The notes under the pieces: model-generated
Told to the model about the DNA's origin: nothing
Database searches by the model: none
The model's input: the letters and a program-made list of their open reading frames with translations, nothing else
Program-made: the position numbers and the translations under genes
Part shown: piece by piece, positions 46,782 to 51,734 of the stretch
Layout: every line of letters starts with the position of its first letter
Position numbering within the stretch: the stretch's first letter is position 1
Origin: a virus
IMG/VR virus record: IMGVR_UViG_3300032093_000017
Length of the DNA: 64,000 nt
Reading direction: 5' to 3' (one strand)

Positions 46782-47453
46782 ATGAAAACCTATATTGTAT
46801 ATAAAATTACGAATAAGAAAAACGGAAAGTCTTATATAGGAAAATCTGAATATCCATTAGAGCATCGTTGGAATCGTCATTTATCATCAGCAAGAAATGG
46901 TTCTAAATTTAGATTTCATTCTGCTATTAGAAAATATGGGGAAGATTGTTGGGACTTATCTGTGATTGAAACTTACCAAACTGAAGATGAAAACTTTATT
47001 AATGAAAAGGAAACTCACTTCATTAAACTCTTTGAAAGTGATACTAAAGGTTATAATGCTACTTCGGGGGGAACTGGTGGATGGATGCTTCCAAGATGCT
47101 CACAGGAGGTTCAGGAAGAGTGGAGAAATGGTATTTCCATAAGAACTATTGGTTACAATAATCCAAACTATTCTGGATACACTGATGAGGAACTCATAGA
47201 AGTAGGTGTAAAGTTTGCTAAAAAATATGGATTTATTGGTGGAAGGAAAAGAATAGTTGAGTTTGCTCTTAGTGAATTAAATATTAAGTTTCCAAAACAT
47301 TTCTCCAAAAATAGATTTGACGGAAACCATCAAAACTTTTATAAATCTATTGAAGAACAAACTGGATTGGTGTATAATCCTTATTATAGAGACGAAACTC
47401 AAAGAAAACTTGCTAAACAACTTTTAGAACAAAATAGGAGAAAAAAATGCTAA
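46782..47453 (+). CDS. free-standing GIY-YIG homing endonuclease
   Basis: YIVYKITNKKNGKSYIG, R...H, E..FI, GYN.TSGG. Confidence 0.92.
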   Translation: MKTYIVYKITNKKNGKSYIGKSEYPLEHRWNRHLSSARNGSKFRFHSAIRKYGEDCWDLSVIETYQTEDENFINEKETHFIKLFESDTKGYNATSGGTGGWMLPRCSQEVQEEWRNGISIRTIGYNNPNYSGYTDEELIEVGVKFAKKYGFIGGRKRIVEFALSELNIKFPKHFSKNRFDGNHQNFYKSIEEQTGLVYNPYYRDETQRKLAKQLLEQNRRKKC

Positions 47454-47545
47454 AGATTGAATATCTTGAAGAAGAAATCCCAGTTTATGATATTACAGTA
47501 GAAGGAACTCATAATTTCTTCGCAAATGATATTCTAGTCCATAAT
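47447..47545 (+). mobile_element. split intein C-fragment (IntC)
   Basis: Block F VYDITV..THNF and block G HN/C. Confidence 0.92.
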
Positions 47546-48541
47546 TGCCAGGAAATTACTCTTCCAACAAAACCACTTCAACACATTGATGATCCCAATG
47601 GGGAGATTGCACTTTGTATTCTTTCTGCTGTTAATGTTGGCAAAGTAAAGTCTGATGATGAATTTGAAGATCTTTGTAATCTTTCTGTTCGTGGTTTGGA
47701 AGAATTGATTGATTATCAAAACTATCCTGTAGTTGCTGCAGAGATTGGAACCAAAGCACGTAGATCTTTGGGTGTTGGGTATATTGGTTTGGCACACTAT
47801 CTTGCTAAACTTGGTTTTAATTACGATACTCAAGAAGCTTGGGATGCGGTTCATCAATTGTCTGAATCGTTCCAATATTTCCTTCTAAAAGCATCAAATG
47901 AAGTTGCTAAAGAAAAGGGTGCCTGTGAATATTTTAATCGCACTAAGTATTCGCAAGGTATTCTTCCAATTGACACTTACAAGAAAGATGTGGATGAAGT
48001 TTCTTCTGTTCCTCTTCATCACGATTGGGAATCGTTAAGGCAATCAATCAAAGAGTTTGGTCTCAGGCACTCCACTCTTACAGCACAGATGCCATCTGAA
48101 TCCAGTTCTGTCGTCTCCAATGCCACAAACGGCATCGAACCACCTCGTGGATTTTTATCAATTAAGAAATCTAAAAAAGGTCCTCTCAAACAAATTGTTC
48201 CTCAATATCAACATCTTAAAAACAACTATACGTTGCTTTGGGATATGCCTAGCAATCGTGGTTATATTAATATTGTTGCAGTTATGCAGAAATTCTTCGA
48301 TCAAGCAATTTCTGGAAACTGGTCGTATAATCCAGAAAATTATGCCAATAATGAAGTTCCTGTTAGCGTAATGGCACAAGATATGCTTACTTGTTTTAAA
48401 CTTGGGCATAAGACGGCATATTATCAAAATACATATGACAATAAGACCGACGAAATTAAGGAGGAAAAAACTAATATTGACGATTTGGTTAAAGAACTTT
48501 TAGAGGGGGGGGAAGACGACTGTGAATCCTGTAAAATTTAG
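47447..48541 (+). CDS. nrdA: split-intein C part fused to ribonucleotide reductase alpha C-terminal fragment
   Basis: 33 aa IntC PVYDITVEGTHNFFANDILVHN then CQEI; CILSAVN, MPSESSS, GIEP, C-terminal CESCKI. Confidence 0.95.
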   Translation: MLKIEYLEEEIPVYDITVEGTHNFFANDILVHNCQEITLPTKPLQHIDDPNGEIALCILSAVNVGKVKSDDEFEDLCNLSVRGLEELIDYQNYPVVAAEIGTKARRSLGVGYIGLAHYLAKLGFNYDTQEAWDAVHQLSESFQYFLLKASNEVAKEKGACEYFNRTKYSQGILPIDTYKKDVDEVSSVPLHHDWESLRQSIKEFGLRHSTLTAQMPSESSSVVSNATNGIEPPRGFLSIKKSKKGPLKQIVPQYQHLKNNYTLLWDMPSNRGYINIVAVMQKFFDQAISGNWSYNPENYANNEVPVSVMAQDMLTCFKLGHKTAYYQNTYDNKTDEIKEEKTNIDDLVKELLEGGEDDCESCKI

Positions 48542-49706: not shown

Positions 49707-49732
49707 AATTGTAACAAAAATAACAAAAAAAA

Positions 49733-49762
49733 TTGACTATATAACGTACAAGGGAATATAAT
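49733..49762 (+). promoter_or_regulatory. sigma70-type promoter with adjacent imperfect NtcA box
   Basis: TTGACT-18 bp-TATAAT; predicted TSS near 49769; TGTA-N8-AACA at 49710-49725. Confidence 0.65.
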
Positions 49763-49770
49763 AAGTCCCT

Positions 49771-49834
49771 AACGTTCATCTGCTATTTGCGAATTGCGAA
49801 TGTAGACGGAAGTAAGCCGACTCGGAACGGAACG
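49771..49834 (+). ncRNA. glutamine riboswitch-like aptamer 1 (glnA / Downstream-peptide class)
   Basis: CGTTCATC-stem-GACGGAAGTAAG...GGAACG with P1 CGTTC/GAACG, matching the recalled glnA consensus. Confidence 0.8.
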
Positions 49835-50002
49835 TTCATCTATGGAAGCACTCATTCTATCTTGCTTACAAGCACAATTAATTGTAGGAAGAGTTCATAA
49901 ACAAGACATTCCTAAACAAGCAAAGAATGATTTAATTTGGGAGATTAAACAAATCTCACCAAAGACGTGTAAAATAGACGCAAAAGCCGACTGAAGGAAC
50001 GC
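49833..50002 (+). ncRNA. glutamine riboswitch-like aptamer 2 with a greatly expanded P2 loop
   Basis: CGTTCATCTAT...ATAGACGCAAAAGCCGACTGAAGGAACGC; P1 and P2 close around about 130 nt of insert. Confidence 0.65.
49842..49994 (+). CDS. 50 aa ORF nested in aptamer 2; not in ORF track
   Basis: MEALILSCLQAQLIVGRVHKQDIPKQAKNDLIWEIKQISPKTCKIDAKAD. Confidence 0.55.
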   Translation: MEALILSCLQAQLIVGRVHKQDIPKQAKNDLIWEIKQISPKTCKIDAKAD

Positions 50003-50032
50003 TCTTTAACCTAAAAACTAAGGAGAAACCTA

Positions 50033-50197
50033 ATGTCAAAAGTTGTATACCGTGGTGTTGAATATGACACTACAAACCGTCCTAATCAAACATTTAAATG
50101 TGAACCAAGAGTAGAAATTTATCGTGGTGCTATGTTTTATGTTGATGAAAATGGAAACAAACTTTCTATGCAGAAGTCGGGGGAAACAATTAAATGA
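50033..50197 (+). CDS. DUF4278-family small protein; not in ORF track
   Basis: 54 aa with two YRG motifs (VVYRGVEY, IYRGAMF); AAGGAG RBS. Confidence 0.8.
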   Translation: MSKVVYRGVEYDTTNRPNQTFKCEPRVEIYRGAMFYVDENGNKLSMQKSGETIK

Positions 50198-50286
50198 AAA
50201 AAATTAATGTCCTTCAACTTATTAAAGAACAAAAACAAAAAGAAAATCGTCGTCACCAAGCTAAAATAGTGATGATTAAAAAGTAA
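50194..50286 (+). CDS. 30 aa basic peptide; not in ORF track
   Basis: MKKINVLQLIKEQKQKENRRHQAKIVMIKK; ATGA overlap with the DUF4278 gene. Confidence 0.55.
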   Translation: MKKINVLQLIKEQKQKENRRHQAKIVMIKK

Positions 50287-50290
50287 ATTG

Positions 50291-50321
50291 ATAGGAGGGG
50301 CAATACCCCTCCTATTTTTTT
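50291..50321 (+). terminator. Rho-independent terminator
   Basis: ATAGGAGGGG-CAATA-CCCCTCCTAT followed by a T-run and late promoter TATAAATA at 50321. Confidence 0.9.
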
Positions 50322-50348
50322 ATAAATAACTAAAAACAGTCTAAAAAG

Positions 50349-51734
50349 ATGTCTTTAAGAAATTCATATAAAAGTTTTTATACTGAAGGTGTTGCAGCAG
50401 AACATCCAGATATTGCGGGACAAAAAGAATTTGCAAATAAGGCAGATGCTGAAATTGCTCGTAGAAGAGCAGCAAGAGCAAAGAAAGCAGGACCACAACT
50501 TCCTGGTTTTGTTGCGTCAGTAAAGAAAGAAGAAGTTGAAGTAAATGAAGCACACTGGAATCCAGTAACAAAAAAAATTCAGGATAAACCACCATCAAAG
50601 GAAGAAATTGAATCTTTGGCAGCAAAAGCAAGAACTAAGAAAAAAGTAAGAAAACCACAAGGTTCTATTCGTAAAACTAGTGGAACATTTAAACCATCAT
50701 CACCAGAAGAAGCAAAAGCAAATAAAGCATCTTGGGGTGACTATTGGAGTTCTGCAGCAAAAGGTTACAAAGAGGAATATGTAAATGAAAAAATTGACGT
50801 AGGTGCTGATGTCAGTAAAACAATTAGTGATTTCGTTCATTCAAAGAGCAAAACCTTCAAAGGTGATAGTAAGAAGCAAAGAATTAAGAGAGCACTTGGT
50901 GCTTATTATGCAGCACAAAGAGAAGAAACAGAAAACATTTATAATTATGTAATTGAAACTTTAGTTGATGCTGACTTCGCAGAAAGTTATGAAGCAGCAG
51001 AAGTAATGTTTGAACATATTAGTGATGAGTTTACTGCAGCAATTCTTGAGGAATATATTGAAGAAAAGGCAAGAGGAACCAGAAAGAAAACAACAGTTCA
51101 CGCATATGACGTTGATGAAACCTTATTTGGGCACGGCAAAAAGGGCAAACCAAATGTTCAGGTTCACGTTAAAGACGCATCAGGAAAAAGAGTTAAGAGT
51201 CTAAGCAACCAAGAGTTCAATACTCATAAGTTGGAGAAGGGTCATTCTTATGACTTTAGTGAGTTCCAGAGTGCTAAGAAGTTCAAAGAAACTTCAAGTC
51301 CAAATAAAAAAGTAATCAAGGATATTAAGAGAAAGCAGGCAAGAGGACAAAATGTTCATCTTATTACTGCTCGTTCTAAGTTTGATAAACCAAGTGAATT
51401 CCAAGGTCATCTCAAGAAGCACGGTGTTGATGTAGATAAGTCAAAGATTCACTATACTGGTGGGATGAAAGGTGGTGATATTGGTAAGAAGAAAGTGGAT
51501 GTTGCGAATGCAGTAGCAAAGCAAAGTGGGGCTAAGAGCATTCATATGTATGATGATGCTGCAAAAGTTCATAAGGCATTTGAAAAAGAAAAGAAAGAAG
51601 CACCAACATCAAAGAAAATCAAAACACATATGGTTGCACCAGATAAAAAAGGTGAATCAAGAGTTCGTTCTTATCAAGCAACTAAGAACGAAGAAATGAG
51701 TTCTTACGAGTACTGGAAACAATTTATTGATTGA
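50349..51734 (+). CDS. modular late protein with C-terminal HAD-superfamily phosphatase domain
   Basis: HAD motifs YDVDETL, LITAR, K, MYDD; basic modules separated by (V/I/Y)xE sites. Confidence 0.7.
   Translation: MSLRNSYKSFYTEGVAAEHPDIAGQKEFANKADAEIARRRAARAKKAGPQLPGFVASVKKEEVEVNEAHWNPVTKKIQDKPPSKEEIESLAAKARTKKKVRKPQGSIRKTSGTFKPSSPEEAKANKASWGDYWSSAAKGYKEEYVNEKIDVGADVSKTISDFVHSKSKTFKGDSKKQRIKRALGAYYAAQREETENIYNYVIETLVDADFAESYEAAEVMFEHISDEFTAAILEEYIEEKARGTRKKTTVHAYDVDETLFGHGKKGKPNVQVHVKDASGKRVKSLSNQEFNTHKLEKGHSYDFSEFQSAKKFKETSSPNKKVIKDIKRKQARGQNVHLITARSKFDKPSEFQGHLKKHGVDVDKSKIHYTGGMKGGDIGKKKVDVANAVAKQSGAKSIHMYDDAAKVHKAFEKEKKEAPTSKKIKTHMVAPDKKGESRVRSYQATKNEEMSSYEYWKQFID

Follow-up and report, generated by a model that had tools for sequence, protein, structure and literature searches.

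Glutamine riboswitches are established regulators in front of DUF4278 genes in cyanobacteria. The type 1 glutamine riboswitch (glnA RNA, Rfam RF01739) is found in the leader of gifB, which encodes IF17, in Synechocystis, where an NtcA box lies in the promoter region and a translational ON switch was proposed in which the C after P1 and the following bases hide the ribosome-binding site (Klahn et al. 2018, PMC6212724; see also PMC6698751 for the ON-switch model and the DUF4278 link). The glutamine-II riboswitch (Downstream-peptide motif, RF01704) precedes YRG/DUF4278 microproteins (yfr6, PMM1846) of marine picocyanobacteria, and an NtcA motif was reported for PMM1846 (PMC6316151). Tandem glnA RNAs are known (PMC2864571), and glnA RNAs have already been annotated in cyanophages, including Synechococcus phage S-CREM1 (Rfam; PMC9964418). 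Open reading frames embedded in structured regulatory RNAs, whose translation competes with folding of the RNA, include mgtL in the Mg2+ leader of Salmonella mgtA and the ORFs looped out of group I introns such as T4 td. However, mgtL is a short sensor peptide located in the expression platform and not a conserved folded protein inside a ligand-binding domain, while intron ORFs are homing endonucleases in a ribozyme rather than in a metabolite sensor. In the papers we searched or read, we found no description of a gene nested in a glutamine aptamer.

Here, we analyzed a 64,000-nt stretch (the window) of the IMG/VR virus record IMGVR_UViG_3300032093_000017, which is a T4-like cyanophage. The original prediction described a self-contained unit made of a promoter, two tandem glutamine-riboswitch-like elements, a ribosome-binding site (RBS), a 54-aa DUF4278 protein, an overlapping 30-aa basic peptide and a terminator, with an NtcA-like site upstream. 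We found every one of these features at 49711-50321 (+ strand), and the observation is therefore confirmed. One feature had been missed, since the second element is split and its two halves are separated by 136 nt that encode a conserved 50-aa protein (49842-49994), so that the unit holds three genes and not two. nrdB lies upstream of the unit and a late-type motif (TATAAATA, 50321-50328) precedes the next gene. To place these features in context, we collected about 120 related cyanophage contigs, in which the DUF4278 gene follows at a fixed distance. The genome position of the cassette changes.

The sigma-70-type promoter consists of TTGACT (49733-49738), an 18-nt spacer and TATAAT (49757-49762), with 11 of 12 matches to the consensus. 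The whole window contains nine sites this good, compared with 4.35 expected, but a TTGnnn-N16-19-TAnnnT promoter occupies the same place in 82 of 101 unique relatives. A TATATAA motif (49738-49744) abuts the -35 and is a candidate alternative -10 element (late-type or NtcA-type), a function inferred only from the sequence; relatives have TATATA(G) or TAAATA(G) at this position. The NtcA-like box GTAACAAAAATAAC (49711-49724; GTA-N8-AAC) has one mismatch in the consensus triplet of GTA-N8-TAC. By itself, this site is not beyond chance, as the window has 249 sites with at most one mismatch. Its position, however, is the one held by a perfect GTA-N8-TAC in most related cassettes: 82 of 101 unique upstream regions carry a perfect box, against 0.03 expected, most at about the window's distance from aptamer 1. 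The center of the window's box lies about 52 nt upstream of the start expected from TATAAT, or about 33 nt upstream of that expected from TATATAA, rather than at the activating -41.5. Repressing NtcA boxes lie over the core promoter, and the distance of about 33 nt resembles the repressing gif sites at -30.5 and -28.5 (PMC6316151). A leader hairpin (AGGGA/UCCCU, 49751-49770) has the TATAAT in its loop and ends 2 nt before aptamer 1. It is present in the predicted minimum-energy fold, and in 90 unique relatives the best stem averages 6.5 bp against 5.16 in shuffles, with 55 different 5' arms. At the other end of the unit, an intrinsic terminator (50290-50316) with an 11-bp stem containing 6 G-C pairs is followed by a T run (to 50323).

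Aptamer 1 (49773-49829) is compact and runs from CGTTCA at 49773 to GGAACG at 49824-49829, with P1 CGUUC/GAACG, an extended P1a hairpin and a ACGGAAGUAAGCCGACUC junction. A search of the whole window at the Rfam gathering threshold returned no match. A search of 751 nt with the glnA and Downstream-peptide models, a check that had been suggested beforehand, matched aptamer 1 to RF01739 at 31.3 bits (E = 1e-4), below the gathering score of 35, while RF01704 had no match in the window at E <= 10. Relatives scored only 26.4 and 28.1 bits on RF01704 against a gathering score of 33, with several non-standard pairs. The glutamine-II class shares a YRGxxY protein directly downstream, a CGCA-type junction as in aptamer 2 and GGAACGG as in aptamer 1. 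In 55 homologues of aptamer 1, P1 is invariant, all 5 P1a pairs show compensatory changes and 99% of cells are paired, with a covariation score of 0.44 against 0.12 in shuffles. Homologous aptamers in relatives scored 33.3 to 39.4 bits on RF01739 and several passed the threshold.

Aptamer 2 begins with CGTTCATCTAT (49833-49843), which comprises the P1 strand CGUUC, an A and the P1a strand UCUAU, and overlaps the first two bases of the AUG at 49842. Its 3' half (49974-50002) carries ATAGACGCAAAAGCCGACTGAAGGAACG (49974-50001), that is the P1a strand AUAGA, a CGCAAAAGCCGACUGAAG junction and the P1 strand GAACG, followed by the conserved C50002. The 136-nt insert prevents scoring of the window's aptamer 2 with the covariance model, but compact relatives with this exact core scored 33.9 to 39.4 bits on RF01739, and 5 of 8 were above the gathering score. 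The long-range P1a stem covaries in 44 unique contexts, with a mean of 5.8 bp against 3.76 +/- 0.22 in shuffles, and 90 of 100 unique aptamer-2 sequences carry the insert. As P1 is invariant, its pairing partner cannot be shown by covariation, and the CGUUC/GAACG strands of the two aptamers can also pair with each other; indeed, a GGAACG-GAA-CGUUC hairpin appears in the predicted fold. Both elements share the core of the gifB switch (CGUUCA ... ACGG/CAA ... GAAGGAACGC), although P3 is reduced to 2 bp and each core has only part of the type 1 signature. Aptamer 1 has ACGGAAGUA but CUCGGAACGG, hence no GAAG segment and a G instead of the C after P1 that makes a long-range G-C pair in type 1 switches, whereas aptamer 2 has ACGCAAAA with GAAGGAACGC.

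The ORF nested in the P1a loop of aptamer 2 (49842-49994) ends at the UGA of the aptamer core and encodes a 50-aa two-cysteine protein predicted to fold as a helical hairpin (AlphaFold pLDDT 86, two helices). It is under purifying selection, with a median dN/dS of 0.22 and codon-position variability of 11.3/5.4/15.4. The ORF is intact in 84 of 89 unique relatives, from an AUG in the stem to the core UGA, its lengths differ by multiples of three, and the AUG is always 9-11 nt after CGUUCA. The two cysteines are invariant. We found 128 homologous protein clusters, a match to phrog_504 (E = 0.004) and a relationship to the genes nested in aptamer 1 of other phages (hhalign 94%). A Foldseek search of the model against the PDB gave no match with E <= 0.001, but a 50-aa helical hairpin is not informative there. 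We rejected a signal peptide or lipoprotein, since the N-terminal hydrophobic stretch in the window is only 7 residues long, although one related family nested in aptamer 1 does look exported. In P-SSM4, S-SRM01 and DSL-LC02, the nested ORFs are annotated only as hypothetical proteins and no riboswitch is annotated there. The homologous cassette of S-CREM1 has two compact aptamers and no nested gene. A scan of 185,579 prokaryote genomes with a 16-nt core returned almost only chance hits, and just two short, probably misbinned, phage-like contigs were relevant.

Downstream of aptamer 2, the RBS AAGGAG (50020-50025) lies 7 nt before the ATG at 50033. In predicted folds, CUCUUUA (50002-50008) pairs with UAAGGAG (50019-50025), thereby hiding the Shine-Dalgarno (SD) of the DUF4278 gene, which fits the published ON-switch model. 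The same pairing starts directly after GGAACG in 20 unique related leaders, but it is absent from the marine class of cassettes, so this mechanism is not general. The 54-aa protein (50033-50197) contains YRGVEY and YRGAMFY motifs, scored 23.0 bits on PF14105 (E = 1.1e-4; cut-off 25.3) and matched phrog_5049 (E = 4.7e-7). As 93 of 95 cassette homologues matched PF14105 at E <= 0.01 (best 1.2e-7), assignment at the family level is safe, although the window protein itself is just under the cut-off. The 30-aa basic peptide (50194-50286), predicted to be helical and translationally coupled by an ATGA overlap, belongs to a conserved family and is fused to DUF4278 in some phages (S-CREM1, and L101 and L113 among the relatives).

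The interpretation originally proposed, in which two tandem aptamers let the phage read host glutamine and 2-oxoglutarate status and tune nitrogen assimilation, possibly through a two-piece IF17 mimic, is partly supported. The self-contained unit, the riboswitch kind of both elements, the DUF4278-like gene, the conserved peptide and an NtcA box conserved in the cassette family all held, but in the window the aptamers are not a simple tandem in front of one gene. The mimic idea is only half supported. DUF4278 is the N-terminal domain of IF17 and fusions with the peptide exist, but the 54-aa protein lacks the GS-binding C-terminal half of IF17. In IF7 and IF17, GS binding needs arginines in an IF7-like C-terminal region. 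A profile of the basic-peptide family searched against 1.84 billion representatives found 74 cluster representatives, nearly all 27-45-aa peptides of the same kind and none of IF7 or IF17 size and kind, a result that rests on the profile search rather than on direct alignment with IF7. NCBIfam gave nothing relevant for the three peptides, and PDB sequence searches with DUF4278 and the basic peptide gave chance-level hits only. A search for longer, IF17-like relatives of the DUF4278 protein found none, but this is weak evidence as that search depends on shared words. A protein with peptide-YRG repeats (P0153) was traced only to a 2-kb contig. A predicted complex of DUF4278 with the basic peptide scored 0.01, which we do not count either way. 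Thus, nothing we found links either peptide to glutamine synthetase.

Taken together, we consider it somewhat more likely than not that this is a mobile, self-contained three-gene cassette of T4-like cyanophages. What the sequence analyses establish is its architecture: a promoter and a strong terminator delimiting a predicted transcript of about 550 nt, a leader with two glutamine-riboswitch aptamers 3 nt apart, the second closing its P1 and P1a helices across a real gene, then the DUF4278 protein and the overlapping peptide. Its operation, including glutamine binding, transcript start, expression and any effect on glutamine synthetase, is inferred. Without glutamine, CUCUUUA, which begins at the conserved C right after P1 of aptamer 2, would pair with the SD of the DUF4278 gene; glutamine binding would draw that C into the aptamer and free the RBS, so that DUF4278 and the coupled peptide would be made when glutamine is high, as proposed for gifB. 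Furthermore, as the start codon of the nested gene lies in the P1a stem and its stop codon in the aptamer core, closure of aptamer 2 and translation of the nested gene would exclude each other, and one RNA would give nested protein at low glutamine and DUF4278 plus peptide at high glutamine. A ribosome terminating at the UGA could also open the anti-SD helix. The direction of control on the nested gene is pure inference. The weakest step is that the DUF4278 protein and the basic peptide act together on host nitrogen control, with glutamine synthetase or PII/NtcA-linked signalling as the targets we consider most likely.

Other readings appear unlikely. The best surviving one is that aptamer 2 no longer works as a sensor, aptamer 1 regulating the nested gene that starts 9 nt after it, and the 3' half of aptamer 2 being kept only as C-terminal coding sequence (DAKAD-stop) and as leader of the DUF4278 gene, which would be switched on mainly by translational coupling to the nested gene. 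The stop codon of the nested gene lies 8 nt before the anti-SD sequence, so a terminating ribosome would open it, the AUG follows aptamer 1 closely, and a 136-nt loop slows long-range folding. However, the P1a stem covaries across the ORF (although both strands are also constrained by coding), the 5' half CGUUCAUC is invariant in front of every nested ORF, and the 3' core is identical to that of compact aptamers that pass the Rfam threshold. Slightly less likely, the two cores could form one interlocked or strand-swapped double sensor, because their P1 strands are identical and only 3-4 nt apart. The linker between GGAACG and the next CGUUCA is 3-4 nt in 111 of 113 unique cassettes and the hairpin joining them appears in the minimum-energy fold, but each P1a pairs with its own partner, while the invariant P1 strands give no covariation for or against any partner choice. 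That two ordinary aptamers control only DUF4278 and the peptide, with a variable non-coding loop in the second, is very unlikely given the conserved, intact nested ORF, although compact tandems without any insert exist in S-PM2, S-CREM1 and 13 unique metagenomic cassettes.

A conserved protein gene inside the ligand-binding domain of a riboswitch is, as far as we could find, undescribed, whereas glutamine riboswitches before DUF4278 genes, including in cyanophages, are known. Such a layout would make metabolite sensing and translation compete on one RNA, and it also explains why standard RNA-family scans miss these aptamers. The cassette packs three conserved microproteins, a host nitrogen-regulator box and two sensors into 600 bases, small enough to be tested whole in a reporter. 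A tentative possibility is that one glutamine aptamer gives two opposite outputs because a gene sits inside it: at low glutamine, ribosomes translating the nested protein would keep aptamer 2 open, and at high glutamine the aptamer would close over that gene's start codon, silence it and at the same time unmask the RBS of DUF4278 and the basic peptide, the phage thereby switching between two sets of microproteins according to the nitrogen state of its host. If the peptides act on host nitrogen assimilation, the cassette would be a direct route by which abundant aquatic viruses read and reset the nitrogen state of primary producers.

DNA searches placed the region in T4-like cyanophages (Kyanoviridae), with Synechococcus phages DSL-LC03, DSL-LC02 and S-SRM01 as the nearest named relatives and weaker matches to P-SSM2, P-SSM4, S-PM2 and others. 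The gene upstream of the unit is nrdB (PF00268, E = 5.6e-55). The ORF before nrdB (47447-48541) begins with an intein C-terminal segment (...VHN|C) joined to the C-terminal barrel of NrdA (PF14890, E = 3e-7; PF02867), and nrdA is therefore interrupted by an intein here. Downstream, the motif TATAAATA (50321-50328) lies 20 nt before a 461-aa lysine-rich ORF (50349-51734) that has no family match in Pfam or PHROGs, and 13 of the 14 such motifs in the window lie on the + strand.

Every feature listed in the original prediction is present. The sigma-70 promoter TTGACT-18-TATAAT (49733-49762) has 11 of 12 matches, and the whole window has nine sites this good against 4.35 expected. The first element, CGTTCA...GGAACG, spans 49773-49829, and a second CGTTCATCTAT at 49833 has its partner ATAGACGCAAAAGCCGACTGAAGGAACG at 49974-50001. 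We also found AAGGAG at 50020-50025, a 54-aa ORF with two YRG motifs (50033-50197), a 30-aa ORF overlapping it by ATGA (50194-50286), an 11-bp terminator (50290-50316) and the NtcA-like GTA-N8-AAC (49711-49724). Rfam returned nothing at gathering threshold, but a sensitive scan of 751 nt matched the first element to the glutamine riboswitch RF01739 over the full model, at 31.3 bits (gathering score 35) and E = 1e-4. The 54-aa protein matched DUF4278 at 23.0 bits, with a cut-off of 25.3. However, the original prediction missed that the two halves of the second element are 136 nt apart and that this stretch is an ORF of 50 codons (49842-49994). Its AUG overlaps the 5' strand of the hairpin stem (UCUAU), and its stop is the UGA inside the conserved core GCCGACUGAAGGAACG.

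To assess how widespread this cassette is, we searched for relatives. Seven annotated phages have the same module at different genome positions: after nrdB in DSL-LC02 and DSL-LC03, before td in P-SSM2, S-PM2 and S-SRM01, between pstS and talC in P-SSM4, and beside the regA-type repressor gene in S-CREM1, which carries a 'riboswitch glnA' annotation (PMC9964418). The cassette therefore behaves as a movable unit. An exact search of IMG/VR for the 25-nt 3' core of aptamer 2 found at least 120 contigs. Of the 120 examined, 118 have a CGTTCA 5' half within 260 nt, giving 100 unique aptamer-2 sequences, of which ten are compact (41-46 nt) and 90 carry inserts of 125-185 nt. Among unique whole cassettes, 51 have the layout of the window (aptamer 1 compact, aptamer 2 with an insert), 33 have inserts in both aptamers, 13 have none and 6 have an insert only in aptamer 1, while 7 were cut at the contig end so that aptamer 1 could not be classed. 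In three phage loci (L006 from P-SSM4, 515-700; L036, 1071-1268; L069, 4460-4657), a manA RNA (RF01745, 168-184 bits) lies within a few hundred bases of the glutamine cassette. Two short contigs binned as Acetobacteraceae and Dehalococcoidia MAGs (L137 and L185) also carry the phage-type aptamer-2 core, but these are probably misbinned cyanophage fragments.

We then asked whether the aptamers are real. For aptamer 1, an alignment of 55 distinct homologues showed an invariant P1 and core, while all five P1a pairs carry compensatory changes, including the closing pair (U-A, A-U, C-G, G-C). Of the cells, 99% are paired, and the covariation score is 0.44 against 0.12 in shuffles (0 of 500 as high), whereas slid controls collapsed. 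For aptamer 2, compact relatives with the identical 3' core scored 33.9-39.4 bits on RF01739, and five of eight are above Rfam's own threshold. In the insert-bearing copies, the stem that closes across the insert covaries (UCUAU/AUAGA, UCCCA/UGGGA, UCCUUA/UAAGGA, UUCUCA/UGAGGA, UCUUAU/AUAAGA and others). Over 44 unique contexts, the mean contiguous stem is 5.8 bp, against 3.76 +/- 0.22 when 3' strands are shuffled (maximum 4.55 in 2000 shuffles), and in 14 of the 44 contexts the stem is 7-8 bp long and runs over the AUG. Aptamer 2 of the window is therefore the same aptamer as the compact ones, stretched around an insert, which is why covariance-model scans miss it. Because P1 never varies, covariation cannot say which CGUUC pairs with which GAACG. 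Moreover, the linker between the cores is 3-4 nt in 111 of 113 unique cassettes and the predicted fold contains a GGAACG-GAA-CGUUC hairpin, so a coupled or strand-swapped double sensor remains possible, although we consider it unlikely.

The nested ORF is a gene. In 84 of 89 unique relatives, the frame is open from the AUG, which is always 9-11 nt after CGUUCA, to the core UGA, and lengths within subfamilies differ by multiples of three. In 33 unique close relatives, variability by codon position is 11.3/5.4/15.4 and the median dN/dS is 0.22, with synonymous sites near saturation. The protein has 128 homologous clusters in metagenomes, none with a Pfam domain, and the longest contigs reach 247 kb, which is phage-sized. 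It falls in phrog_504, for which no function is assigned. Seventy diverse members share two invariant cysteines (C8 and C43 in the window protein) and the C-terminal DAKAD that the aptamer core encodes. AlphaFold with this alignment predicted a confident two-helix hairpin (pLDDT 86, helices 8-20 and 25-37), which has no informative match in the PDB. Aptamer 1 can also carry a nested gene, as observed in P-SSM4 (L006, 790-1025) and in 39 unique IMG/VR loci. These genes form two further families of 62-69 aa with the same Cys...Cys layout, one of which is clearly related to the window protein (hhalign 94%, E = 8.5e-8), while the other (MTKALLLLAWVPLLS...) starts with a signal-peptide-like segment and is only weakly similar.

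In the contigs with enough downstream sequence, a YRG-bearing ORF (M[AS][KQ]V[TV]YRGV.YD...YRG) nearly always starts 31-37 nt after aptamer 2, occasionally 61-62 nt, behind a (A/U)AGGAG. Of 95 unique proteins, 93 match PF14105 at E <= 0.01. The next small ORF overlaps or abuts the stop codon and is of one of three kinds, namely the basic helical peptide of the window (N[WF]L..I[KR].Q..K......AQL), a hydrophobic membrane-type peptide or a second DUF4278. The hydrophobic peptide, of 27-30 aa (MLVTAEILAASVVFL..IYAEA..LY), replaces the basic one in many marine cassettes (loci L008, L015, L023, L049, L063 and others), and the second DUF4278 occurs in a few. In three cassettes (L044, L054, L122), aptamer 2 is followed directly by a peptide resembling the basic family (MNTLTLIKKQIEK...), with no DUF4278 gene. 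The basic peptide is a real family, with 34 distinct peptides in our loci and 74 cluster representatives in a full HMMER search, almost all 27-45 aa long. Natural fusions with DUF4278 occur in both orders, DUF4278-peptide in S-CREM1 (L003, 1555-1701) and in loci L101 and L113, and peptide-YRG in protein P0153, which repeats peptide-AKAYRG twice. These fusions argue that the two act together. However, no hit resembled IF7 or IF17, and searches of NCBIfam, of the PDB and for longer proteins gave nothing.

The architecture upstream of aptamer 1 is conserved. In order, it holds a TGTA-N8-TACA box, perfect in 82 of 101 unique upstream regions against 0.03 expected and most often centred 51-55 nt before CGUUCA (55.5 nt in the window). 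Next comes TTGAC(T) or TTGCAT directly abutting TATATA(G) or TAAATA(G), then a -10 hexamer 17 nt (18 in the window) after the -35, present in 82 of 101, and a short hairpin whose arms flank that -10 and covary. The NtcA box of the window is a one-mismatch copy at the conserved place, but on its own it is not significant, since the window has 249 such sites. The motif abutting the -35 (49738-49744 in the window) is found in most cassettes and resembles the cyanophage late-promoter motif, and the unit may have two promoters, one early sigma-70 type and one late or NtcA type. Relative to the sigma-70 promoter the box is centred near -52, and relative to a possible start driven by TATATAA it is near -33. 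The second value resembles the repressing sites of the host gif genes at -30.5, -7.5 and -28.5 (PMC6316151), and NtcA boxes are known to be frequent in cyanomyovirus genomes (PMC3037559). The hairpin (49751-49770, and the homologous place in loci L008 to L128) lies directly before aptamer 1 and holds the -10 hexamer in its loop. Its arms covary widely (AGGGA/UCCCU, UGUGUU/AACACA, GGUAU/AUACC and others), with 55 different 5' arms and a mean stem of 6.5 bp against 5.16 in shuffles. This implies either a transcript that starts upstream of it, which the covariation favours, or a DNA-level palindrome.

Glutamine riboswitches, their tandem arrangement and their link to DUF4278 and NtcA are already known (PMC2864571, PMC6212724, PMC6316151), and glnA RNAs have been listed in cyanophages (PMC9964418) and in other marine phages (PMC9004378). 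In the literature we could examine, we found no description of a gene inside the aptamer.

In the predicted fold of 49750-50045 (-67.8 kcal/mol, z = -3.4), CUCUUUA (50002-50008) pairs with UAAGGAG (50019-50025), and its first base is the conserved C that follows P1. In the published model for the gifB switch, this C and its neighbours hide the ribosome-binding site until glutamine binding draws the C into a long-range pair, which makes an ON switch (PMC6212724, PMC6698751). The same pairing, starting directly after GGAACG, is present in 20 unique leaders of the class of the window. The marine class has a small GGGG...CCCC hairpin there instead, and its SD is not hidden in the predicted fold. 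While the aptamer stems and the nested gene are supported by the comparative data, glutamine binding by this RNA is inferred, and three further points are inferred from the geometry alone: a closed aptamer 2 would bury the translation start of the nested gene, ribosomes on the nested gene would keep aptamer 2 open, and a ribosome stopping at UGA 49992-49994 would cover the P1 3' strand and most of the anti-SD. The RNA could thus act as a toggle or as a coupling device.

The original prediction also proposed that the phage reads host nitrogen status and tunes its assimilation, possibly through a two-piece mimic of IF17, an interpretation that our results support only in part. DUF4278 is the N-terminal, stabilising part of the GS inhibitor IF17, whereas the GS-binding part is its IF7-like C-terminal half (PMC6316151), and the phage protein has only the former. 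The YRGxxY motif has also been compared with the PII T-loop (supplement of PMC2864571). Although nothing here shows it and any effect on GS is likewise inferred, we rank a nitrogen-signalling target (GS, PII, PipX or NtcA) as the most likely for these phage proteins.
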